DNA of 64,000 bases, taken from an uncultured Planctomycetaceae bacterium (GTDB lineage: Bacteria; Planctomycetota; Planctomycetia; Isosphaerales; Isosphaeraceae). Location: positions 6,368,001 to 6,432,000 of the forward strand of contig CAWIAD010000002.1 in the NCBI GenBank assembly GCA_963833985.1. Direction: 5' to 3'. Shown here in pieces: positions 25,593 through 38,461 of the stretch. The first letter of the stretch is position 1, and every line of letters begins with the position of its first letter. A program made the position numbers and the translations under genes. A model generated the notes under the pieces. That model searched no databases, was not told where the DNA came from, and was given only the letters and a program-made list of their open reading frames with translations.

Positions 25593-27107
25593 ATGCCTCG
25601 CCCCATGGTCGCCGCGCTGGCGATACTGGCTGCCAGCGCGACGAATGCGTTCGCGCAGGGGATCATCGCGCCCACGGCCGGACCGATCAACAGCTCCATG
25701 GCCGGGGCCTCGGTCGCGGCCCCGGTCGATTTCGGCGGCAGCTACTGGAACCCGGCCATCCTCAGCGGCCTGCCGCGCAACGAGTTCCTGCTCGGCTCGC
25801 AACTCCTCATTCCCAGCTACCACCTGACCTCCAGCCTGCCCGCTGGTGCCATCGCCGGCATCTTCCCGCCGACGGGCCGCTACGGCGTGGCCCGCAGCGA
25901 CAGCGGCGTCGCCTCCAACCTCGCCACGGGTGTCTCCTTCCGGCTCAGTGACGATTCCAGGACCACGTTCGGCATCGGCGTCTTCGGCCTGGTGGGCGGC
26001 GGGGTCAATTACGCCGGCAGCAACACCACCCCCGTCCTCACTCCCCGGCAGCCCCCCAACTACCTCGGAGTCGGACCGATCTACTCGAGCACCTCGTTCC
26101 TGGCCATCTTGCTGACGGGCTCTCAGCAGGTCACTGACCGCCTGGCCATCGGCGGCGGGCCGATGATCGTCACCGGCCCCTCGGCGTTCAACCCGGCCTT
26201 CTTCGCACCGGGGCCCAAAGATCAGTATGGTTTGCCGACCTTCCCCGCGGGGACCAACGCCCGGCCGTTCTGGGGCGCCGGGTTCCAGATTGGCCTGCTG
26301 TATAACCTGAGCGACAACTGGAACATCGGCTTCTCGTACAAGAGCCCCGTCTGGCAAGAGCGGTACGGCTTCAACGCCTCCACCCCGGACCTCGCCGCGC
26401 GGCGGATCGGCATCCAGTCACAAGTGCCGGAGATCCTCTCGTGGGGTATCGCCTACAAGGGCTTCGAGCGGGCCCTCATCGACGTCGACCTCCGCTACCT
26501 GGATTACAAGAACACCACGCTGTATGGCACCAAGCCGATCGACGGCGGCCTGGGCTGGAGCAGCGTCTTCGCCGTTGCCCTCGGCGGCCAGTACCAGGTG
26601 ACCGATCGCCTCACCCTGCGATCGGGCTACCTCTACAACACCAATCCGATCAAGGGTACGAACACGCTCTTCAACATCCAGGCGCCCGGGTTCTTGCAGC
26701 AGATGTTCGCGGTTGGTGCGTCGTACCAGCTCACCGACGACATCGTTGTCACGGCGGCCTGGACGCATCAGTTCCGCAATGAGATCTCGGGCCCCGTTCT
26801 CCAGATCCCCGGCGAACGGATCAAGCTCGACGGGCAGACTGACTCCATCATCATGGGACTGAACGTCCGCTTCGGTGGGCGCGGGAGCCGGGTGGACAAT
26901 TCCGTCTCCGAGACGCCGATCCTTGTCCCACAGCCCCCGACCAGCCCCGCCGCGACCGATCCGGTGCTGCCGGAGGACGCATCTGCACCCGCTTTACCGT
27001 CGACCGCGGCCGCCCATGCCCCTGCCGCCGTCCCGGCGCCGTTGCCCCCGCTGCCGTCCGCGGCTCCGGCCGTCGCGACAAGCCAGCCGGGGACGACACG
27101 GCCATGA
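25593..27107 (+). CDS. OmpP1/FadL/TodX family outer membrane transport protein with Pro/Ala-rich tail
   Basis: Signal peptide AFA-QG, SMAGASVAAPVD..SYWNPA hatch motif, amphipathic beta strands, LTLRSGYLYN. Confidence 0.85.
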   Translation: MPRPMVAALAILAASATNAFAQGIIAPTAGPINSSMAGASVAAPVDFGGSYWNPAILSGLPRNEFLLGSQLLIPSYHLTSSLPAGAIAGIFPPTGRYGVARSDSGVASNLATGVSFRLSDDSRTTFGIGVFGLVGGGVNYAGSNTTPVLTPRQPPNYLGVGPIYSSTSFLAILLTGSQQVTDRLAIGGGPMIVTGPSAFNPAFFAPGPKDQYGLPTFPAGTNARPFWGAGFQIGLLYNLSDNWNIGFSYKSPVWQERYGFNASTPDLAARRIGIQSQVPEILSWGIAYKGFERALIDVDLRYLDYKNTTLYGTKPIDGGLGWSSVFAVALGGQYQVTDRLTLRSGYLYNTNPIKGTNTLFNIQAPGFLQQMFAVGASYQLTDDIVVTAAWTHQFRNEISGPVLQIPGERIKLDGQTDSIIMGLNVRFGGRGSRVDNSVSETPILVPQPPTSPAATDPVLPEDASAPALPSTAAAHAPAAVPAPLPPLPSAAPAVATSQPGTTRP

Positions 27108-28387
27108 TGACGCGGTTGATGGCGATCCGGCGCATGGCTCTTCTGGTCTGCGGTGCGGTCAGCGCGTGTGCCCTGTCCGGCTGTGCGTTCGGCCCCAAGG
27201 TGCTGGAGAAAACGCACTGGCGGTACCAGGAGGCGGTGCGCCAGGTCGACGAGGAGCAGTTGCTCAGGAACCTGGTGCACCTGCGCTACAGCGAGCTGCC
27301 GCTGGCCCTGAACGTCTCGTCGATCGCGGCCCAGTACGAGCTGACCGGCGCGGCGGAGGCCCGCCCCTTCTTCCTGGCGCCCAATCCCAGCAACAGCAAT
27401 GTCATCTTCAAGACGTTCACATCCATCCTTCCCGACCTCTCCGTGAGCGGAGCCAACCGGCCCACGATCACCCTGGTGCCCGGCGATACCGGCGAGGCAG
27501 TCCAGCGCTTCCTGACACCGATCCCGACCGAGACCCTCGTCTTCCTGAGCGAGTCGAGCTGGCCAGTGGCGGTGGTCTTGCGGCTCTGGGTCGAGCGGCT
27601 CAACGGCGTGCCGAACGCGGTGACGGCCAGCGGCCCCGCGCGCGGCGTCATCTCCGACCACGAGCGCTTTCTCCGTGTGGCCGGACTGCTTCAGCATGCC
27701 CAGGACCATGAACTGGCCACGATCCGCACGGAGCAGCGCGATCGCGTCCTGAGCGGCCCGATCGCGGGGTCTTCCATGACCGCGGCCTCGCTGGTCGATG
27801 CCGCGCGTGCCGGCATGGAATACCAGGCCTCCCCGGACCGCCAGAGCTGGGTCCTGGTGCGCAAGGAAGAGAAGCTCATGATCCGGGTGAATCCCCGCGC
27901 GGTCGATGCCCCCGAGGTCCGGGAGATCGTCGGGCTGCTGAACCTGCGGCCGGGCCAGCTTTACTACGACGTCGTCGTGGCGCCCGGCGACGTACCCGAC
28001 CCCCTGCTCTACCCGCGTCCCCCGTCGTCCGAGCTGCGGATCTCACCTCGTTCCACCTCGCAGGTCTTCTTTTACCTGTCCAATGGCGTGGAGGTGCCCG
28101 CCGCTCACCAGCAGTGCGGACTGGTGAAGCCCACGGTGAACGCCCAGGGGGAACCCATGGACAGCCGGGCGCTCACCCGCGGCCTCTTCGAGGTCCACGC
28201 CTGCTCGGGCCACAAGCCGCCGCCCACCGCGTATCTCGCCGTCAGGAACCGGGGCTACTGGTACTACATCGACGACCGCGACCAGGCCAGCAAGTCCACG
28301 CTCTCCCTGGTGCTCCAGCTCAGCCGGCTCGATTTCGGCACCCAGAAGGCGACCGGCCCCATCCTCACCTTGCCGGTGGGCCGCTGA
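27104..28387 (+). CDS. conserved hypothetical lipoprotein
   Basis: Lipobox LSGC; ATGA overlap with the FadL-like gene; EQLLRNLVHLRY and YWYYIDDRD..SK motifs. Confidence 0.8.
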   Translation: MMTRLMAIRRMALLVCGAVSACALSGCAFGPKVLEKTHWRYQEAVRQVDEEQLLRNLVHLRYSELPLALNVSSIAAQYELTGAAEARPFFLAPNPSNSNVIFKTFTSILPDLSVSGANRPTITLVPGDTGEAVQRFLTPIPTETLVFLSESSWPVAVVLRLWVERLNGVPNAVTASGPARGVISDHERFLRVAGLLQHAQDHELATIRTEQRDRVLSGPIAGSSMTAASLVDAARAGMEYQASPDRQSWVLVRKEEKLMIRVNPRAVDAPEVREIVGLLNLRPGQLYYDVVVAPGDVPDPLLYPRPPSSELRISPRSTSQVFFYLSNGVEVPAAHQQCGLVKPTVNAQGEPMDSRALTRGLFEVHACSGHKPPPTAYLAVRNRGYWYYIDDRDQASKSTLSLVLQLSRLDFGTQKATGPILTLPVGR

Positions 28388-28466
28388 CCCTTCCCAGGCG
28401 GTTCGGACAATCGAATCCATTCATTCCCCACTGCCACAGCCACAGTCGCGCCGGCCAGCCTGCCGG

Positions 28467-28732
28467 AAATTGGGTTCCTTCTGCGCCCGCTCGCACCCCA
28501 TTTTGTAGACGTTACTCTTTTTATTGTATATGTTTAGAGTGTCTCACCAATTTGGCTTCGTTCCCTCGATTTGTACGTGACTTCCAGCCTTCTGTGCTGC
28601 GTCAGCCCCGGACCCTTGCGGCGTGTCGCTGCCCGGTTCGTGGGTCCAGCCCCCCGGATGTAGGTCAGCCTTCGGACCCGTGAAATTGGCTTCGATCCCG
28701 CGATCCCGGCTCGAAGCCATCGGACGTTACTT
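28467..28732. repeat. diverged intergenic repeats with AA(A/T)TTGG(G/C)TTC core
   Basis: Copies at 28467, 28549 and 28683. The first and third are each followed about 40 bp later by GACGTTACT. Confidence 0.5.
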
Positions 28733-28790
28733 GTTCCGGAACAGTGACTTACACATCGTTTTTCGATTGAACGACCGTAGCGAACGACGG

Positions 28791-28821
28791 GTAGGGTGGG
28801 TCGAGCGTTGCGAGGCCCACC
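28791..28821 (+). repeat. GTAG-type REP element
   Basis: GTAG followed by imperfect hairpin GGTGGGTC..GGCCCACC. Confidence 0.65.
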
Positions 28822-29042
28822 GGCTGGCAGAGTTCCGCATGCGCCCGGCTGCACCCGCCCCACGACATCCCGGAACGATGCCGTCCTCTGCGCTCTTTCC
28901 GGATCGTTGTCCCCGGTTGCAAGTCCTCTCCTCCTTTCCGGGACCGAGCCCGGCAGACCAGCGCGTCGCCCGGCCGCGGCTCAGCGCGCTGGTCTCAACC
29001 ATCGGCCGGATTGTCAAGGAGCAAGGAGCGTCGGACCATCCT

Positions 29043-29154
29043 GTCCTGTATTCAGTTTACGGCAGGTTCCCACCATCCGCGATCAGAATCCCACCACCCC
29101 GCCGTCTCCCATCGCGGAGTGGCCTCGATCTCATTCCCCAGGAGGCAGGGCCAA
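29043..29154 (+). repeat. ~112 bp diverged direct repeat, copy 1
   Basis: Aligns by eye with 31057-31167 at about 80% with one gap. Begins with the end-like motif TGTCCTGTATT. Confidence 0.8.
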
Positions 29155-29235
29155 AGCGCCTCCTGGTTCGTCCGCTTCGTGACATCGGAGCTTCGCGTGG
29201 CAGTCCAGATGCACCCGTGCCCTGAGCATGGAGCG

Positions 29236-29452
29236 TCCGTACACGTGCGCAGCTTCGTGGATCACGGGCATCCGTGCACGTGCGCAGTTTTGTGGAGTAC
29301 GGAACCGATAGCCAGGTGCTCCAGCGTCGTGGAGTTTGAAACGGGAGTCCACTGCTCTATCGCCGTGGGGATCCGGGCGGATGGCCACTGCTCCATCGCC
29401 GTGGAGATCCGGGCGGATGGCCACGTGCGTCAGTACGTGGTTTTCACGGGCG
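29236..29452. repeat. degenerate ~36 bp tandem array, six units
   Basis: GTGG recurs at 29257, 29292, 29329, 29365, 29401 and 29437. Units 29349-29384 and 29385-29420 are 34/36 identical. Confidence 0.75.
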
Positions 29453-29642
29453 CAGCCTCCAACCTCGGCCGTGAGGCCGACCAGAACCCAGTCGCGAATC
29501 CCACCACCCGCTTGACCGCCGTCCTCGTCGCGCCCGCGATCGTCGCATGCCGCGCCGCTCGGACACGTGCAGACGTCCCATGTCTTGTAGCAACCTCTCG
29601 TTTAGGTTTCCCCGGTGTTTCAGGTGAGCAGAGCCACGCAGA

Positions 29643-29855
29643 GTCCTCCAGCGGGGCGTCCAAGTCGGGGGCCATCCAGTGCTTCGTGTCCTTCGCTGTG
29701 CCGGGCTGACAGGGCCATGTCGTCCGAGCTGGCTTGGTAACGATGGCTTTCGGTTCACCCTCCATGGTCAGTACCAGTTCCTCGCCCGGAACCATCCCTT
29801 CGACGAGTTGGTGCAGCGAGCCGACAGCGACATCGAACGGCAATTTACGTGGCAT
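29643..29855 (-). pseudogene. type II antitoxin (Phd/DUF2281-like), 3' end replaced, toxin absent
   Basis: PGEELVLT..GEPKAIV...PGTAKD..WMAPDLDAPLED, then no stop at the expected position. AGGGAG RBS. Confidence 0.65.
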
Positions 29856-30401
29856 TTGCATGCTCCCTGAGGTTCGGCTTCTGACGACGGCTGAGCCAGA
29901 CACCCGCCACCTTCGCCACGTTCAGTCCTTCTTCATGGGGATCATCGAGGAGGGCATGGTGAGCCCTCATTGAGTTCTGCGTAACACCGGTTGAATCGGT
30001 CTCGGTTGGCCCCCGCGATGCGGCGAGGCTTCTCTGCCGCGAACGGCGGGTGCATTGATCTAACCCTTCGCGACCACATCTTGACCCCGGGTCATATCGC
30101 GTCCGGCCGAGCTGACAGACGCGTGGCTCGATCCCGGAGCGGCCCGGCTCTCCAGGCGGCTCGTCGGTCGCGCCGTCAACGCCCCGAGGTTCGATTCCAG
30201 GATCAAGTCGATTCGCCGATGCACTCAGTTTAACCGGCCCTTCGGCGGCGGGGAGAGGGTCCACCAGACCGCCGTCGCGCCGGCCCGGTCTCCGCACTCA
30301 CCATCCCGGGCAGTTCGGTCCTGGAGACCCGCTTAATGGAAGCCGGCCGATGACGGTTCGCTTCCCACGTGATCCGACCTGCCGCATGCCTCGATACGTC
30401 C

Positions 30402-30764
30402 TCATCGAGAGCGCCGTTTCGTTTGTCGCACAGGCTGTGCGACAATTTCCGGCGTCCAGTAAGCGAGATAGAACGCACGCATGCGGAATACGTTGCTGCG
30501 GGAAAACCCGCCCACGCCGGGGAGGGCTTTTTGAAGGTCATCGGCGAGCCGCTCAAGCACCTGCTGTCCCCAGTTCGCCTGTTCCTTCCGCTGGACGAGC
30601 TCCCGGCCAATCTCCCAGTAGAGGCGAATCAGCTCCCGGTTCACGGAGAGCGCTGCCTGCGTCTGGGCATGGCGAAAGCGGGCCTTCAGCGATTCCAGGA
30701 ACTCGGCGTAGTCCAGCGGCAGGTCGGGGGCCGTGGTGAGGCCGCCTTGTTTCTTGCGGGCCAT
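30402..30764 (-). pseudogene. yhcG: YhcG/DUF1016 N-terminal fragment (nuclease domain missing)
   Basis: AQTQAALSVNRELIRLYWEIGREL, WGQQVLERLADDL, GFSRSNVFRMRAFY. Stops after 120 aa. Confidence 0.85.
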
Positions 30765-30890
30765 CAGTCCCCTTCGTCCATCGGTTTGCCTCGCACCTGG
30801 CCCGTGAGCAGCATCTGTATGAGGCCTTTCTTCCTTCTGGGCCTTGAGCGCTTCCAGTTCCTTGCTCGAGAGGTCGAGATCGCGGTCCGT
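30764..30890 (-). pseudogene. hsdS: 3' remnant of type I restriction-modification specificity subunit
   Basis: DRDLDLSSKELEALKAQK/KKGLIQMLLTGQVR with an internal frameshift matches the HsdS C-terminal coiled coil. Stop overlaps the yhcG start (TGATG). Confidence 0.7.
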
Positions 30891-31056
30891 TCCCCGGAAA
30901 GAAAGGTGATCTTCCTTTGCTCCTAAATTGTGGGTAGCGGAATGACCGTCCTGGGAGAGAGGCCATCCCGAAGGAAGCCGGCTGATGACCGCACTCTTCC
31001 CATGTGATCCAACCTTCCGGCACGCCCACTATGTCTCCCTCGAATCCCCTCATCGC

Positions 31057-31167
31057 GTCCTGTATCAGTTTGCGGCAGCTTCGCAGCGCAAGCGGTCAGC
31101 AACCCACTCCCTCGACGTCTCCCCTCACTGAGTGGCCTCGATCCAATTCCCCAGGAGGCAGAGCCCA
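31057..31167 (+). repeat. ~111 bp diverged direct repeat, copy 2
   Basis: Shares GAGTGGCCTCGATC and ATTCCCCAGGAGGCAG blocks with copy 1. Confidence 0.8.
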
Positions 31168-31227
31168 ATGTGTACACGATCGCAGTTAGCGACCATGCGA
31201 TCGTGCGTAACGGTTTACGCGCAATGC

Positions 31228-31268
31228 ATGTCCCGTTTCCCCGTTTCGTCTCTGTCCCGTTTCGTCTC
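31228..31268 (+). repeat. stuttered right-end motifs of the Y1 transposase element family
   Basis: ATGTCCCGTTT (31228), CCCGTTT (31240), TGTCCCGTTT (31253). Confidence 0.75.
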
Positions 31269-31940
31269 GGGGAGGCCCTTGTCGCCGTACCCCTGCTCGC
31301 ATTGATCATTCCGGTCGAGGTCGCCGCTCCGCTAGCGGTCCTCGTGTCGGTCACGGTCGCCGGGGTCATTCTCTTACAGGACTGGCGGGACGTCCATACG
31401 AGCAGCGCTTGGAGGCTCATTCTTTCGACCACGTTCGGCATCCCTTGCGGTCTTCTGTTACTAACATCGGTCGCGGAACCGATAGTCAAGGCGGTTCTCG
31501 CCGCCGTGATCATTACCTTCGCGATGTACCGCCTGGTCGGACGCAGCCGTTTCGAGTTGGAGGACGACCGCCTGGCGTGGCTATTCGGGTTTGGGGCCGG
31601 GGTGCTGGGTGGCGCTTACGGCGTGAACGGGCCCCCGCTGGTGGCCTACGGGACACTGCGGCGCTGGTCTCCCGATCGGTTCCGGGCTACTCTGCAAGGG
31701 TACTTCCTGCCCGCCAGCCTGGTCGGCATGGCGGGTTACTGGGTGGCTGGTCTCTGGGTTCCCGCAGTGACTCGCTACTACCTCATGTCCATGCCAGTGG
31801 TCCTGGCGGCGACCGCTCTCGGACGTGTGCTCAACCGACGCTTGGATGGGCGTCGGTTCCTCCTCTACGTCCACATCGGGCTGATGGTGATCGGGTTGAT
31901 CCTCTTGATCCAGGCGGTGTGGGGTTCGGGCAGGTCATGA
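31269..31940 (+). pseudogene. TauE/SafE family sulfite exporter, 5'-truncated (may be translated from an in-frame start in the repeat)
   Basis: GEALVAVPLL, GVLGGAYGVNGPPLV, FRATLQGYF. The first TM helix is replaced by end-repeat sequence. Confidence 0.75.
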
Positions 31941-32114
31941 GCCGATCCGGCAGGCATTGAAGATCAACGACCGACCGCAGTCATTACGGCGGGTCCTGCC
32001 CATGCATTGGGGTATGGCCCAACCTGCCCCCAGGAACTTGCGGCTGATTGTTACCGCATGTATGCTCGGCCCTCCGAAACACCCTTGACTTCACGTTATT
32101 GGGGGCAAACGCTG

Positions 32115-32516
32115 ATGGACATCAATCGACGCAGGTTACTGGCGAGTGGAACGACCTTGGCGGGCTTCTCGGCGCTGCATGGCGTGGCAGAGGTGCAGGG
32201 TGGAGAAACGGCCAACGTTCCGACCGAGGCAGTAGTTCTCACGGCCATGGTGAAGGCCAGGACGGGGCAGGAAGAAGCGGTGAAGGAAGCCCTGCTCTCC
32301 CTGGTCGAGCCGACTCGGAAGGAACCTGGCTGCCTCTGCTACAACCTTCACCAGTCGAAGTCCGACCCGACTCAATTCATGTTCTATGAACAATGGGCCA
32401 GCAAGGAGGATCTGGCTGCCCACGGTAAAACTCCCCACATGAAGGCCCTGGGTGGGAAGCTCAAGGACAGAACAGAAAAAGGAGGCGGGGTGGTCTTGTA
32501 CGAGTTGCTGAAGTAA
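32115..32516 (+). CDS. ABM-family (putative quinol) monooxygenase with twin-arginine leader
   Basis: NRRRLL leader; TRKEPGCLCYNLHQS..F.FYEQW.S..L.AH.KTPH. Confidence 0.85.
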   Translation: MDINRRRLLASGTTLAGFSALHGVAEVQGGETANVPTEAVVLTAMVKARTGQEEAVKEALLSLVEPTRKEPGCLCYNLHQSKSDPTQFMFYEQWASKEDLAAHGKTPHMKALGGKLKDRTEKGGGVVLYELLK

Positions 32517-32525
32517 GGGGCAGAG

Positions 32526-32647
32526 AATACAGGACAGCAGCCGGATAGACGCGGGAGAGAAACCGGGACGTCTTTGGTATTGAAGCGGCAGATCGAAAAC
32601 GAGAGAGAAACCGGGACATCCTCAATATTGCAGTGGCGGGGGGTGTC
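32526..32647 (+). repeat. stuttered left-end motifs of the Y1 transposase element
   Basis: AATACAGGACA (32526), GGAGAGAAACCGGGACGTC (32554), GAGAGAAACCGGGACATC (32603). The latter two share TATTG.AG.GGC downstream. Confidence 0.8.
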
Positions 32648-32656
32648 GGCGATACT
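32628..32656 (+). promoter_or_regulatory. sigma-70-like promoter inside the left end; probably a leaderless transposase mRNA
   Basis: TTGCAG-N17-GATACT, with the ATG 6 nt after the -10 box and no SD. Confidence 0.6.
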
Positions 32657-32662
32657 GGTTCC

Positions 32663-33340
32663 ATGCCACGAACAGCACGATCGATCGAGGCGGGGATGGT
32701 TTATCACGTTCTCAACCGGGGGAACGGGCGGTTGCGGCTGTTTCACAAGGATGAGGACTATGAAGCCTTCGAACGCGTGCTCAGCGATGGGTTGCAGAGG
32801 TACCCGGTCGACCTGCTGACGTATTGCCTCATGCCCGATCACTGGCACCTGGTCGTCAGGCCGAGAGCCGACGCGGCACTGGGGAGGTTCATGGGGTGGG
32901 TGGGCGTGACCCATGTCCGCCGACACCAGGAGCGCTATCACCGTCGGGGATCCGGACACCTCTACCAGGGCCGCTACAAGAGCTTTCCCGTCGCCGAGGA
33001 TGCTTACTTCCTGACCCTTTGCCGCTATGTCGAGGCCAACGCGGTGCGGGCCGGATTGGTGGCGCACGCCGAAGAGTGGCGCTGGGGGGCGTACTGGCGG
33101 CGGGCGCATCGCCGCACCGACCTTCCTCTGGGTCGCTGGCCTCTGGAGCGTCCCCGGAACTGGAGGACCCTGGTCAACGGCCGCCTCTCCCCTGAAGAGC
33201 TGAGCCAGGTCCGCAAGTCTGTTACGCGCGGCCGCCCGCTCGGGACAGAAGAGTGGATTCTGTCGACAGCGGCTCGATTGAAGCTGGAATTCACCCTCCG
33301 CAGCCCGGGCCGCCCACGTGCGAATCCCGAGAATCTGTGA
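32663..33340 (+). mobile_element. Y1/HUH tyrosine transposase (REP-associated RAYT / IS200-like fold)
   Basis: MPRTAR, YHVLNRGN, YCLMPDHWHLVV (HUH), GHLYQGRYKS, CRYVEANAVRAG (catalytic Tyr), GRP tail. Confidence 0.92.
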
Positions 33341-33369
33341 TGTCCCGTTTTGTACGCCGTCCCGTTTTG
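33340..33369 (+). repeat. duplicated right-end motif overlapping the transposase stop codon
   Basis: tgATGTCCCGTTTTG (33340) and GTCCCGTTTTG (33359), inverted relative to the left-end AACGGGACAT. Confidence 0.8.
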
Positions 33370-33414
33370 CACGCCGGGTGCGATCGCGGGATTTGGCCTC
33401 TGATGAGAAGGATT

Positions 33415-33700
33415 CCAGGGATGATTACGCGGGTCGTCTACGGCCAGCCCTTCGGCGGTGGCGTCGTCGTCGGGGGCGTGGTCGGCCGAGATCAGCGTCA
33501 CCAGGGCGAAACCGGCGTCCTGCTCTTTCCAGTCGATTTCGAGGGTGGCCGCGAGCTGCACGGCGTCATAGGTGCGGAGCGCATGCGCATTGGCCAGCCG
33601 CATGGCGTCGTCGAACAGGGCTGGTGGAATTTCGAGAACCGCGTAACGGCCGGTCAGATGCTGGCGGGTGCGATAGAGGATCGACGACGCCTTGGCGGGG
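33415..33700 (-). pseudogene. 5'-truncated VapC/PIN toxin remnant
   Basis: AMRLANAHALRTYDAVQLAATL...TLISAD...AEGLAVDDPRNHP. The N-terminal half is absent and the expected stop reads TGG. Confidence 0.75.
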
Positions 33701-33871
33701 GAGAGATAATGGGACAGGAGAGGAGAGTTAACGGGACATCTATGGAGGAGAATTAACGGGACACCTTCGATATTGAAGCGGCGAGGGGTGTCACTGCAAC
33801 CGACACCGAAAATGCATGTGCAAGAGCCAACGAACCTCTTGCTTCCGTAATCCAGCGCATGCGACCGTATA

Positions 33872-33886
33872 GCTAGACAGTCTAGC
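33872..33886. promoter_or_regulatory. palindromic operator upstream of TA operon (likely autoregulation)
   Basis: Perfect GCTAGAC-A-GTCTAGC, 18 bp before the antitoxin start. Confidence 0.6.
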
Positions 33887-33904
33887 CAATCTGGAGAACC
33901 TCTC

Positions 33905-34144
33905 ATGGACTGGAATCTTGCGGATGCCAAGAATCGATTCAGTGAGGTCGTGAACCTCGCGCTCACTGAAGGGCCACAGCGGGTTCGTCGCCGAAAGGAC
34001 ACGGTTGTTGTCGTGTCCGCCGCAGAATACGAGAGGCTCACCGGAGAACGTCCGGCCTTCAGAGACTACCTCGCCCAGGGGGAATCCTTCGAGGGTCTCG
34101 ACCTGGCTCGTGACCAGAGCCCCGGTCGGGACGTGGCCCTGTGA
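33905..34144 (+). CDS. Phd/YefM family antitoxin
   Basis: WNLADAKNRFSEVV..ALTEGPQRV.RR...VVVVSAAEYERL. Confidence 0.92.
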   Translation: MDWNLADAKNRFSEVVNLALTEGPQRVRRRKDTVVVVSAAEYERLTGERPAFRDYLAQGESFEGLDLARDQSPGRDVAL

Positions 34145-34563
34145 AGGTCCTGCTCGATACCTGCGTCCTGGCGGAGCTACGCGGTCCCGAGGGACATCCC
34201 GCCGTCAAGGCCGCAGTCGCGGAGCTCGCTGACGGAGATCTCTTCTTTAGCGTCCTGACCATCGGTGAGATCGCCAAGTGCGTTGCGCTTCTCGCCGCCG
34301 GCCGAAAGAAGAAGGCCCTCGCATCCTGGCTCAACGGTCTTGAGGTCAAGTACGCGGACCGGCTCCTCGCCATCGACGCCGAAACGGCCCGGATCTGGGG
34401 CGAGTTCACGGCTCGTTCACAGCAGGCCGGGCAAATTGTGCCCGCCGTGGATGGGCTGCTCGCGGCAACCGGAATCCGTCACGGTCTGCACGTGATGACC
34501 CGCAACACTCGCCACTTTGAAGCGAGCGGGGCGCTTGTTCTGGATCCCTGGCAGGATTCATGA
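34141..34563 (+). CDS. vapC: VapC family PIN toxin
   Basis: LLDTCVLAE, SVLTIGEI, DGLLAAT, MTRNTRHF. GTGA overlap with the antitoxin. Confidence 0.92.
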   Translation: MKVLLDTCVLAELRGPEGHPAVKAAVAELADGDLFFSVLTIGEIAKCVALLAAGRKKKALASWLNGLEVKYADRLLAIDAETARIWGEFTARSQQAGQIVPAVDGLLAATGIRHGLHVMTRNTRHFEASGALVLDPWQDS

Positions 34564-34943
34564 GCAAGCACAGAACGACGAGTCACCGAGGCGACCAGGC
34601 TGAAACTCTGAGAGAACTCTCTGAAAATCTCCACGGTACTCGATCACATTGACAGTAGTCATATCGCGTTGCTTGAGTTTCCGCGTGGCTCCGTCTGGAA
34701 TCGCGACCAGGTTCGCGGACTGTTTGACTCCCTCGTTCGGCGACACCCAGTCGGGTCGGCGGCCTGCTCGCGGCCCCGGACGCCTTCGTACGAACCCCGA
34801 AAGCGAGTCATGTCCCGTATTGGACCCGTATTGGGCCCCCGTCCAGTTTTGGACCCCTTCGGTATGATGAATTCCGATGTACACTCAAGAGTCTGCGCCA
34901 GATCCGTATTTGCTTCGTCGAACTCCATGCGGGGGGAGCGTTC

Positions 34944-35531
34944 ATGAGATACGACTTCATCGCCATCCCGGACGAGGAGATCCCCCAGGCACGAGAACCA
35001 CTCTTCCAGCACCTCGTCGTCACCTATGCCAGCGAGACCAACAAGACCGCCAGCATGTGGCGGGCGATACCCGGCGATCTGCTGGACTTCAAGCCCCACG
35101 AGAAGGTGAACACCATCCGTGCCATACTGATCCACCAGATCCTTTCCGAGCGACGGTTTTTCGCCCAGTTCGTCGGCATCCAGGAGCCACCTGTCGAAGA
35201 GCTGCTTCCTCCAGGCGATCATCCGATGGTAGGAGAATACCTGGACCAGTACGTCCTGTGTGCAAAGAGACGATTACCTCAGCTTACCGAGGCGACCGCT
35301 GAATGGTGGCTGACGGAGATGCCGTTCTTTGGTGGGCGGAGCAGGCAGCGAATCTGGACGTTCTGGCGGCGTGTGCTTCATACTTGCCACCATCGGACTC
35401 AGATCCAGACCTGGCTGCGCCTGGCGGGTCAACATGTCCCCGCGATCTACGGACCATCCGGGGATGTGCAATGGGACGACGCTGATCCGACCTATTCCCT
35501 GGAGGCGGCGAGGCGGGGCGGGTCAGGTTAA
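34944..35531 (+). CDS. DinB family protein
   Basis: LDFKPHEK, ILIHQILSE, HTCHHRTQI..WLRLAG..VPAIYGPS. Confidence 0.88.
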   Translation: MRYDFIAIPDEEIPQAREPLFQHLVVTYASETNKTASMWRAIPGDLLDFKPHEKVNTIRAILIHQILSERRFFAQFVGIQEPPVEELLPPGDHPMVGEYLDQYVLCAKRRLPQLTEATAEWWLTEMPFFGGRSRQRIWTFWRRVLHTCHHRTQIQTWLRLAGQHVPAIYGPSGDVQWDDADPTYSLEAARRGGSG

Positions 35532-35628
35532 AAGGGCGGGCTCGGTCTCGTGGGGAATCTTGTAGTCATTTTGATTGATGACACAGGCTATCCAGCCTTA
35601 TCATGAAGCGTAGTACCAGAGGGCTGTC

Positions 35629-35823
35629 ATGCGTCTCTTTCCGAGGTTGGCACTGACACTCGTCCTCATCGCTTTCACGGCGTTCTGCGGGTTCGGGTTC
35701 CTTGCCAGCTTCGAGTCGCCTGGCTTTCTCGTGTTTCGGTGGCTCTACGGGGCTGTTGCCATCGCATGCGTCGTTGCCATCGTGGTAGTGTGGCTCAAAA
35801 CATACGCTCACAAGATGAACTGA
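35629..35823 (+). CDS. small two-TM membrane protein
   Basis: 64 aa, two hydrophobic helices, FC.FGFLASFE motif, AGAGGG RBS. Confidence 0.6.
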   Translation: MRLFPRLALTLVLIAFTAFCGFGFLASFESPGFLVFRWLYGAVAIACVVAIVVVWLKTYAHKMN

Positions 35824-35917
35824 CCAGTAGTTTCCGCGAAAAACCGCACAATCACGGCTTGATGCCTGCCACCCCGGTTGCTCCGGCGGCCCCACCTCGC
35901 CACCAGGCTTTTCTCGC

Positions 35918-36040
35918 GGAGAGAAAACGGGACATCTTCGGGACTCGTACGAAACCCTAAATTCAGTGACGTCCCGTCTTGGAACTCAAATTCAGTGACT
36001 TCCTATTTTGGAGCCGCTGTCCCGTTTGGGAGCCCGTTTC
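35918..36040 (+). mobile_element. empty mini-element (left end + right end) followed by stuttered right ends
   Basis: GGAGAGAAAACGGGACATC ... CGTACGAAACCCTAAATTCAGTGACGTCCCGTCTTGG, with further partial copies at 35988, 36018 and 36033. Confidence 0.7.
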
Positions 36041-36102
36041 GGCTTCATCGTCATTCAGTCCGCCCTGCTCCGTGGAATCACACGCGTACGGCGCGGCAGC
36101 AA

Positions 36103-37392
36103 TCAGCGCGGGGGACTTTCCGCCGGATCGGCTTTCTTCCAGGCCCGCACGTATTCGACGCTGAAGGTGGAGGGGAGGTCGGAATCCTCGGGCATGCCGA
36201 ACCAGTCTGGCATGGTCTCGCTGTCGAAGATCAGGAAGAGCGGCTGGTGCCAGTGGGTGTTCTCGACGCGCCGCACGGCAACACCGTCCACGTAGTACGT
36301 GATCTCGTCACTGCTCCAGTCCAGCCCGTAGACATGGAAATCCGCGGCCAGGCGCCAGGGGGCCACCCAGACCCCGCCTTCCTGCCAGTGCTTCCGCTCC
36401 GTCGGGGTGCGGAAGACGTGCAGCGTCATGTTGTCCTTGAAGTCGAATCCCCGGGCCTTGCCGCCGATCTCGAACACGTCGATCTCGGTCTGCCAGCCTG
36501 GCACCTCTTCCTGCTGGAACCAGAAGGAGCTCAAGCCGCCGGAGTCCATCGGCCTCGCCTTCACCTCGTAATAGCCGTAGCTGGACCGGGCCTTCGTATG
36601 CAGTGCAGCGCTGGTGTAATCTCGGTAGCCAAGCCTTTGAAACTCCTTCGGCACGGGCTCTTTCCGCATCGTCAGGTGCAGCTTGCCGTCCGAGACCGTC
36701 ACGTTTCCGTCCGAGAAGAGTGCCGGCTGCCGGCCCTTCCACCAGGACATTCCCATTGTCCATTTCGATGGATCGAGCGCATTGCCTTCGAACTCGTCGC
36801 TCATCGGCTCGAATCTCGTCCAGCCGCCCCTGTTCTGCTGGTCGGAGAACGGGTAAGCATGGGTCGCGTGCCTGGGTGTCTCGCCCAGTGGTCCTACCCT
36901 CGTCCAGACTTTCCCGGGGCGGCGCTCCACCGCGCTGAATGACGCCTTGCCGATCTCTCTGCCATTCTCGATGAAGCGGACTGTCCGGTACGGTCCACTG
37001 GGAACGGATACGATGAGCGGTGAGGCGAACGTGGCGCCGCCGCCGTCGCGCGGTGTCGCCTGGTACTGCACGGAGAGCGTTCCCTCGTCAGCGGTCACGC
37101 CCTCGACCCGGTACTCCCACACCCGATCGCCGCGTTTGATGAGGCCGGCGACCATCCGGCTGTCAAACGCGTTCGCCGGCAGCACGTTCGGTTTCTTGCC
37201 CTGTGTGAATGCGACTCCGAACGTCCTGTCAAACACCGCCCGGTCCCTGATGGCAAGGCAGCTCGATGCACCCTTCAGGCCGGAGTCATTCCTCTCGAAG
37301 TATCCGCTGTGGACGGTATATGGAACCGGCTGGCCCGGGGCCATCAGCAGCGATGCAGCCAGGCAAAGGCTCAAGACGGTGAGCTGGGGCAT
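36103..37392 (-). CDS. exported GH16 glycoside hydrolase with an extra N-terminal domain
   Basis: SDEFEG..LD..KW, YGYYEVKA, EIDVFE catalytic motif, FHVYGLDW, YYVDG, VEYVRAW. Signal peptide and GGAGGAG RBS. Confidence 0.88.
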   Translation of the reverse strand: MPQLTVLSLCLAASLLMAPGQPVPYTVHSGYFERNDSGLKGASSCLAIRDRAVFDRTFGVAFTQGKKPNVLPANAFDSRMVAGLIKRGDRVWEYRVEGVTADEGTLSVQYQATPRDGGGATFASPLIVSVPSGPYRTVRFIENGREIGKASFSAVERRPGKVWTRVGPLGETPRHATHAYPFSDQQNRGGWTRFEPMSDEFEGNALDPSKWTMGMSWWKGRQPALFSDGNVTVSDGKLHLTMRKEPVPKEFQRLGYRDYTSAALHTKARSSYGYYEVKARPMDSGGLSSFWFQQEEVPGWQTEIDVFEIGGKARGFDFKDNMTLHVFRTPTERKHWQEGGVWVAPWRLAADFHVYGLDWSSDEITYYVDGVAVRRVENTHWHQPLFLIFDSETMPDWFGMPEDSDLPSTFSVEYVRAWKKADPAESPPR

Positions 37393-37637
37393 GTTCGTCT
37401 CCTCCCGGTTGTTCGACCGGCCATCGAGGAAGGAATGTTCGGCGGCCCGGCTTCGGCCTGAGGGCTCGTCGGCTCTGGCCTGAGGGCTCGCCGGCATCGG
37501 CATCGGCATCGGCGGCAGCGGGCATCGCCGTCACCATTCTTGATTCTGCCTGTTCCGGTCGGCCGGGTCAAAGGAGGGGTCGCCTGGCGCGGGGCGGACC
37601 GCGGGTGCCTGCGCGGCACCCAGCGCGTCCGGGACGA

Positions 37638-38461
37638 TCAGTCCTGGCGCGGGTGCAAGAGCCGGAGGCTGAGTGGCATCTCCAGTCCGTGGGTTTCCAT
37701 CAGGCCTGAATCGCCAAGGATCGTGCGGCTGGGGCCGTCGGCGACCATGCGGCCGCGGTCGAGCAGGACGGCGCGGGGGCAGATTTCCAGGACCAGTTCG
37801 AGGTCGTGCGTGGCGATCAGCTTGGTCGCGGTCAGGCCGCTGATCAGCTCGATGAACCTGCGCCGGCCGCGCGGGTCAAGGTTCGCCGTGGGCTCGTCGA
37901 GCACCAGGATCGCCGGCCGGCAGGCCAGCACGCCTGCCAGGCAAACGCGCTTCCGCTCGCCGAAGCTGAGGTGGTGGGGCGGGCGTTCGGCGGCCTCGAG
38001 CAGGTTCACGCGCGCCAGGCACTCGCGGGCAAGCGCCGCGCCTCGTTTTGGCTGAGGCCCTGGTTCAGTGGGCCGAAGGCGACGTCCTCGAGCACGGTGG
38101 TGCAGAAGAGCTGGTCGTCGGGATCCTGGAAAAGCAGGCCGACCTTGCGGCGGACCTCGGCCGCCGTGCGCTGGTTCACCGCAACGCCGTCCACCCAGAC
38201 ATGGGGAGTGGCGCGGCCGTTGCCGCCGCCGAGCCGCAGTCCGTGCTGATGGCCAAGCTCCGGCCGTCCCTTGCCGGGAAGCAGACCGTTGAGGTGCAAG
38301 AGCAGCGTGCTCTTGCCCGCACCGTTGGGGCCCACCAGCGCCACGCACTCGCCCTGCGCGAGCTCGAGGTCCACTCCCCGGAGCGCCGGGCTGCCGTCGG
38401 GATAGGAATACTCCAGCCCGCACAGGCGAAGGGCAGGTGCAGCGGTGATCTCAGTGGTCAT
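37638..38461 (-). CDS. nikO: ECF transporter ATPase NikO/CbiO; frameshift near 38036
   Basis: GPNGAGKST, FQDPDDQLF, DVAFGP in one frame; LSFGERKRV, LDEPTANLDP, ATHD in the next. Confidence 0.88.

Follow-up and report, generated by a model that had tools for sequence, protein, structure and literature searches.

The TIRYT/TIRtron class of element was described by Di Nocera et al. (2013) as a RAYT-like gene with terminal inverted repeats (TIRs), most of the described TIRs bearing the core GGGGWSAS (PMC3733652). Quentin et al. (2018) tentatively equate TIRYT with TnpA-Y1 subclass 2.1, genes of which some 15% of species carry (PMC6006769, Table 1). The closest described groups also include RAYT Group 1 of Bertels et al. 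(2017; PMC5581495); that paper, Bertels et al. (2022) and Corneloup et al. (2021) provide general background. HUH chemistry consists of a nick, formation of a 5'-phosphotyrosine, and rejoining to a 3'-OH (PMC8266576). The passages of PMC3733652, PMC6006769 and PMC5581495 that deal with these enzymes describe no reaction for subclass 2.1, and mention neither a mechanism nor cut genes, stuttered ends or arrays for TIRYTs. We report here on a gene of this class, and the tract around it, in a 64,000-nt stretch of DNA from an uncultured planctomycete of the Isosphaeraceae (GenBank assembly GCA_963833985.1, contig CAWIAD010000002.1, positions 6,368,001 to 6,432,000). This whole stretch is referred to as the window, and positions are those of the window unless a contig (C) or locus (L) is named.

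The element belongs to a known, little-studied class, with behaviour that was not found in the published literature; the window alone is a modest patchwork, and it is the family-level pattern that is of interest. Comparison with relatives suggests that the ends of the element were joined singly to new sites by the Y1/HUH enzyme, leaving patches between unrelated DNAs, and that repeated events of this kind would build a mosaic array, a reading to which we assign a probability of a little under 0.6. A first-pass annotation of the same DNA had proposed instead that the transposase repeatedly inserted or captured DNA at its own ends, giving an integron-like array without an integrase.

The transposase and its ends

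The gene at 32663-33340 on the forward strand encodes a Y1/HUH transposase (PF01797) in which H59-W-H61, Y121 and N125 are intact; H59, H61 and Y121 are invariant among 97 sequences, and N125 is likewise invariant. The structural model (pLDDT 90.5) best matches TnpA-REP (4er8; Z 16.1, root-mean-square deviation 2.9, 159 aligned), the second-best match being IS608 TnpA (Z 9.4), and a sequence search of the PDB gave no matches. The protein scores 13 versus 55 bits with NF033573 (IS200/IS605) and 64 versus 80 bits with NF047646 (RAYT/REPtron). At the Y---NP motif of TnpA-Y1 subclass 2.1 the window protein reads YVEANA, NP being present in several homologues. Its tail (residues 176-211) is helical in the model and is hardly covered by the fold search. 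Two conserved GRP motifs lie in the tail, at residues 187-192 and 212-218 (gene 32666-33337); we take these to resemble AT-hooks, by which the A-tracts of the ends could be read.

In relatives at 66-78% identity the gene stands between near-perfect inverted repeats some 23-28 nt long, the flanks of the window gene carry TIRs and not GTAG-type REPs, and the end sequence differs by Y1 subfamily. By sequence, then, the Y1 gene is that of a TIRYT/TIRtron with TIRs of about 23-28 nt, and the proposal that the motif found here is the end of this enzyme family holds; TIRYT/TIRtron ends already appear in PMC3733652. With TIRYT/TIRtron, subclass 2.1 and RAYT Group 1 the locus shares the RAYT-like Y1 gene, the TIR frame, the GGGAC core, the lack of REPs and the dispersed TIR dimers. 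It differs from these in its core, CGGGACAT, and in that Pfam finds no C-terminal helix-turn-helix. The GGGGWSAS core is matched at six of eight positions by CGGGACAT, at seven by GGGGACAT in the genus, and at all eight in a Pseudomonas aeruginosa relative.

IS200/IS605 TnpA and TnpA-REP resemble the window enzyme in their HUH/Tyr fold and, probably, in nicking and rejoining a single strand. The window ends, in contrast, are inverted repeats, not the subterminal hairpins of IS200/IS605 or the GTAG palindromes of TnpA-REP, as had been noted at first pass, and flanks of the window type are not left contiguous. The folding of single ends is no more stable than that of shuffled sequences (z 0.4), with no subterminal hairpin of the IS200/IS605 type, whereas a paired mini-element from the genus folds into a long stem (z -7.8), so that the substrate of the enzyme may be a paired or duplex repeat. 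Activity of the enzyme is inferred.

Clustering of ends in the window

The first-pass annotation listed 14 left (L) and right (R) sites, all of which were verified in the sequence, except that 31057 is GTCCTGTAT and not the R form. The core [AT]2[CT]GGGAC[AG] occurs 12 times in 29001-36100, against 0.58 expected from 833 copies in the 10.16-Mb genome, and the runner-up 7.1-kb interval of the genome has five; the clustering is far in excess of chance. Likewise, six of the 23 genome copies of TGTCCCGT[AT]T fall in the tract. A weight matrix derived solely from 27 ends of relatives gave scores of 7.9-24.2 at 32554, 32603, 33340, 33747, 34810, 35918 and 35969, and at an end missing from the earlier list (35988-36010); scores were below zero at 29042, 31057, 31228, 32526, 33699, 33722 and 36018. 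Genome-wide there are 42 matches scoring at least 12, six of them inside the tract, the rest being mini-elements, pieces and weak matches. The sites at 31228, 32526, 33699, 33722 and 36018 are read, from their sequence form, as short stutters of the outer end that either adjoin true ends or resemble them, and gene cuts coincide with 31228-31268 and with 33699. The system of ends is real over 31228-36040 and not established over 29042-31170: the array begins at about 31228, and not at 29042 as had been supposed, the left third of the supposed tract consisting of other dispersed repeats.

Genes cut at the outer edges

Homology to tauE begins at 31267 in seven genomes and at 31264 in one, 1 nt from an outer edge; PIN homology ends at 33705/6 in four loci (earlier in others), 6 nt from an outer edge; and a dispersed repeat breaks off at 35917, 1 nt from the next. 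These three mid-sequence cuts are 1-6 nt away from outer edges, and such edges take up about 3% of the tract, joint and edge positions having been set by hand and partly by eye. The ABM gene ends 3 nt ahead of an outer edge. Variation in length is also one-sided. In a second TIRYT family of the window's genome, ladders of 11, 22, 14 and 8 end pieces were found, nearly all of which begin at the outer tip and stop inward at variable points; a fixed outer start with a variable inner stop supports the joining of single ends. Second-family ladders lie at C2:2427053-2428400, C2:3098465-3100056 and C2:4723800-4724400, and some include the start or end of the transposase gene.

If an element inserts cleanly into a gene, the gene should continue at its other edge. 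Of 63 elements from the genus, 58 were retained, five being dropped as duplicates or because the flank was the transposase, and a flanking gene was counted as cut if it stopped no more than 12 nt from the edge. Seven of the 58 had such a gene, and none of the seven continued at the other edge: for six the absent part was not found within 1.5 kb of the other flank, and the match for the seventh is an intact paralogue 530 nt away. Among ordinary insertion sequences (IS) in the window's genome, 15 of 62 had a cut gene and six of these 15 continued, or six of nine when one family of six, with its boundary set inside its own gene, is left out (Fisher p 0.12 and 0.011; 0.05 and 0.003 when the three cuts in the window are added). 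Copies of an IS4-like element taken alone gave no testable cut gene. The absence of continuation at TIRYT elements, read from these flanking sequences, is suggestive, not decisive. No target duplication was found at TIR elements, the longest common string of the flanks being 4.93 versus 4.90 (n=56), and this, with the lack of continuation in all seven cases, suggests that the ends join one at a time.

Joining or deletion of neighbouring DNA by one end has precedents: IS91/ISCR and Helitrons carry out one-ended capture, and IS1 and IS26 make adjacent deletions. The window system differs from these in its small Y1 enzyme, its two symmetric ends and the lack of target duplication.

The tract lies between a lipoprotein gene and a GH16 gene. 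Past the lipoprotein gene, each of the eight relatives compared carries different DNA; in two of the eight an end lies no more than about 1 kb from the gene. In the relative G002 (L083:2534-3552) the lipoprotein orthologue is followed by an insert of two genes, then by a 129-nt repeat of the 3' end of the orthologue, and then by a TIR-like right end. No empty site was found for the 63 elements among the loci compared and the window's genome.

Arrays in Pseudomonas cdi loci

The idea of an array is best supported outside the window, in Pseudomonas loci for contact-dependent inhibition (CDI). A plasmid-collection search gave 28 records, one of which, from P. aeruginosa, led to a Pseudomonas end pattern. 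In this record a cdiA-like gene is followed by modules with three copies of a 31%-identical gene, and four minis, lying between them; the end core is the same. A nuclease toxin frame begins at a right edge, and a haemagglutinin-repeat gene is truncated at a left one. The Pseudomonas pattern was found at 47 loci, representing by our own count 28 distinct places, 17 of them with a cdiA-like gene, the search pattern itself having come from a cdi locus. Among 53 spacers in 15 loci picked as arrays, two of which lacked a cdiA match and were oriented by their neighbours, 52 have their longest open reading frame (ORF) on the array strand and 51 have a GC below 0.52; the end pattern used missed degenerate ends. 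In three genomes with a common flank (96-97%), the content and order of modules differ and most block edges are at elements; one module is cut differently in each (open frame 136, 55 and 44 codons from the element edge) and occupies different array positions. With a wider end pattern, at least three end sites were present in only 11 of 69 loci, so that arrays are a minority outcome. In L188 and L326-L369, TIRtrons and TIR dimers stand between orphan CdiA toxin/immunity modules, and in L367 about a dozen elements alternate with single low-GC genes.

These are the known orphan cdiA-CT/cdiI arrays. The passages of PMC3150448, PMC4725963 and PMC9086364 that treat such arrays name 'transposable elements', not TIRYT nor its place at module joints, and ascribe array assembly in general terms to horizontal transfer and recombination. 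Orphan CDI immunity arrays reach 15 genes in P. aeruginosa (PMC9086364) and are protective (bioRxiv 10.64898/2026.09.30.755834). A link between TIRYT ends and cdi arrays, or an array built by TIRYT, was not found in the published literature; supplements and most subscription papers were outside this scope, so that the Figure 9 TIR lists and the tables of orphan modules may bear on it. Since a distant relative of the window enzyme separates toxin-immunity modules in the same way, it is likely that this kind of enzyme assembles gene arrays with no integrase involved.

Organisation of the tract

The features of the tract and of the DNA to its left are as follows (coordinates, strand, feature).

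28958..31168, no strand: other dispersed repeats, a yhcG fragment, and the 119-nt duplication that includes 29042 and 31057; membership of the system not established
31228..31268, +: orphan right end of three stuttered pieces, outer edge joined into tauE; assigned by stutter form and breakpoint (matrix score negative)
31267..31940, +: tauE/safE, 5' codons absent (PF01925 from profile position 18)
32007..32516, +: ABM monooxygenase, intact (Pfam); a left end comes after the stop
32520..32630, +: full element's left end, made up of three tandem pieces (scores -3.2, 16.0, 13.5), the last extending into the promoter
32663..33340, +: TIRYT Y1/HUH transposase
33330..33370, +: right end of the full element and one stutter (score 24.2)
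33397..33705, -: PIN gene, truncated at the next left end so that its 5' part is missing
33699..33792, +: second left end, three pieces and a promoter stub (36 nt aligned with the full element at 83%)
33858..34563, +: phd-vapC pair with its own promoter, within the second end pair (Pfam phd, vapC)
34622..34770, +: GmrSD (DUF262) 5' fragment, cut at the start of the transposase 3' stub, i.e. the stub's inner end
34769..34850, +: transposase 3' stub (40/55 nt as in the full element's end) and second right end with stutters (score 9.8)
34944..35531, +: dinB-family gene, intact, between elements (Pfam)
35629..35823, +: 64-aa hydrophobic ORF with no family
35825..35917, +: start of another dispersed repeat, cut at the third left end (11 of 13 matches listed stop at 35917)
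35918..36040, +: empty mini-element of left end, transposase 3' stub, right end and stutters (scores 12.7, 19.0, 16.5)

The tract comprises one full element, one end pair around phd-vapC and the cut gmrSD, a mini-element that is empty, and an orphan end, which share one orientation wherever it is readable. Their order is orphan right end, tauE, ABM, full element, PIN, filled end pair, dinB, small ORF, cut repeat, mini-element and GH16. Three right ends carry a transposase stub; they run in the same direction and are mutually alike at 34-40 of 55 nt; the repeat at 35825..35917 continues past the cut in the genome copies inspected; and tauE and ABM are not neighbours in relatives. Whole-gene capture between L and R ends is not what is seen, since most cargo lies between elements, outside the pairs, and is cut. 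Pfam bears out the earlier labels yhcG, tauE, ABM, PIN (E only 0.075), phd, vapC and dinB; a gmrSD fragment had been overlooked. The left 'antitoxin' and the fragment presumed to be hsdS have, as fragments, no Pfam or NCBIfam match, a longer frame matching DUF2281 at E 0.054.

In the left third, the dispersed repeats have about 120 and 7 further genome matches. The 29042 site sits at the homologous position of a motif in a different dispersed repeat, and 31057 is a 79% copy of the 29042 site, so neither is established as an end on its sequence; an 11-mer common to 29042 and 32526 occurs only twice in the genome, which speaks against dismissing 29042. The yhcG and 'hsdS' fragments, thought to be delimited by the motif, are bounded by another repeat, partial copies of which flank yhcG at 30118-30415 and 30944-31050; a further copy of it is cut by a TIR-like end at C2:4771731. 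The stretch 28958-29500 belongs to the dispersed repeat with about 120 genome matches and has internal tandem units. The 119-nt local duplication (29037-29155 and 31051-31168, 79%) has a short inverted match at 35538-35558 and no real match among 13 genus genomes. A GTAG-type palindrome at 28790-28830, with about 60 genome matches, is unrelated to the ends of the transposase gene.

Related elements in the genus and the window's genome

Of 13 other genomes, 11 contain the genus end pattern, frequently as dimers of about 124 nt, with minis dispersed genome-wide; in the window's genome the genus pattern itself has no match, but a variant in which C replaces G is present, and TIR dimers and clusters occur elsewhere in it too. 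In one relative (G009), full elements 94-95% identical have different flanks, showing the element to be mobile. Copies at different places in this genome (L070:9323-9481 and L075:8441-8598) have 159 nt of common left flank, possibly co-mobilised DNA.

An IS4-like element has 11 copies in the window's genome, most with 11-bp duplications, and prefers targets resembling the TIR core. Three copies (C1:292134-293647, C2:1901063 and C2:3541180) have inverted TIR-like flanks, two of them with stutters, and copy and flanks perhaps moved as a unit. An insert that we take to be group II intron-like occupies the same point of two different TIR minis (L111:3333-6687, L112:4635-5551). Long L...R pairs in relatives were considered as cargo carriers and rejected, since they proved to be either chance pairs or minis into which other elements had inserted. 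Rhs fragments are joined to TIRYT ends in two genomes from the window's family (L375:7172-7417, L376:5052-9318).

Mechanism and alternative explanations

It is proposed that the enzyme would nick one strand at the outer tip of an end and transfer the tip to a target 3'-OH, after which inward copying would halt at variable points and the other side would be resolved by a second end, microhomology or host recombination. The expected outcomes would be adjacent deletions (tauE, PIN and the repeat), stutters, and filled end pairs such as that around phd-vapC and truncated gmrSD. Selection on trapped genes might then yield ordered arrays, for example the orphan CdiA immunity arrays; the product in the window's genome looks like an unselected patchwork. 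A fuller version, which we hold tentatively and at somewhat less than even odds, is that TIRYT is an integrase-free gene-acquisition machine in which one end is joined by HUH chemistry while the other side recombines, so that modules are added at one locus; it would build and trim the Pseudomonas CdiA arrays, the planctomycete tract being an unselected product.

Several observations weigh against the joining of single ends. Several cargo breakpoints do fall on the motif, as the first-pass annotation had it, at tauE, PIN, the repeat and the end of ABM, but seven of the 11 tract joints listed are 80-530 nt from an outer edge, and several joints have no motif. No empty allele of the locus was seen among the eight relatives, which share no DNA past the lipoprotein stop. 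The cases showing no continuation are few and drawn from different genomes, and the IS used as control are younger, which means that later host deletions could explain the contrast. Elements in the genus also adjoin housekeeping genes (acrB, rpoN, recJ and acs, in a survey that scanned 86 of 134 called ORFs), and TIR dimers are targets of the IS4-like element and the group II intron-like insert, so some filled end pairs are explained without capture.

A passive hot spot, in which TIRtrons and minis insert cleanly into dispensable repeat-rich DNA and host recombination or slippage later deletes and shuffles the flanks, would suit a tract that adjoins other dispersed repeats, varies past the lipoprotein gene in all eight relatives, and belongs to a genus with minis dispersed across its genomes; the limited likeness of the right stubs also implies that the events are old. 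Random later deletion is not expected to stop at outer edges, however, none of the seven testable cases shows clean insertion, the stutter ladders are one-sided, and one Pseudomonas module is progressively trimmed up to element edges, so that we regard this explanation as unlikely. It is very improbable that the ends are moved by a DDE transposase with the Y1 gene as passenger, or that the ladders are assembly errors: three of the 11 IS4-like copies are indeed flanked by inverted TIR-like cores, but the end sequence tracks the Y1 subfamily, the other IS4-like copies have their own 11-bp duplications where TIR elements have none, and stutters occur also in fragmented assemblies and in an isolate record.

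The resemblance to integrons lies in co-oriented accessory modules split by a repeated site, which is clear in the Pseudomonas cdi loci. A dedicated system, with the enzyme kept for capture, excision and reordering of cassettes at its ends, would account for the co-orientation and low GC of the Pseudomonas spacers, for the cdiA-like gene beside 17 of 28 places, for common modules bounded by elements, and for the Rhs fragments at ends in the window's family. In integrons, however, whole genes carry their own site, whereas TIRYT modules are cut at variable points and lack one in relatives: three genes of the tract are cut, the window cargo is mixed, and no end scoring at least 13 was found in 50 loci of relatives with cargo homologues (three weak matches of 12), so these are not portable cassettes here. 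The element is itself mobile, at least three end sites are the exception, and the link to cdi is partly one of descent, because the pattern came from such a locus. The absence of an integrase was borne out, IntI giving no matches above cut-off in the genome (96% complete) and none in the window; 27000-38000 gave no Rfam match, no attC model having been run. Taken together, a dedicated cassette system appears rather improbable, and the joining of single ends is preferred.

Significance

If TIRYT ends do join singly and patch together unrelated DNAs, HUH chemistry would be put to a new use here, and deletions and mosaics would commonly arise in this way. Such joining would also offer a candidate answer to how the orphan CDI immunity arrays are assembled.

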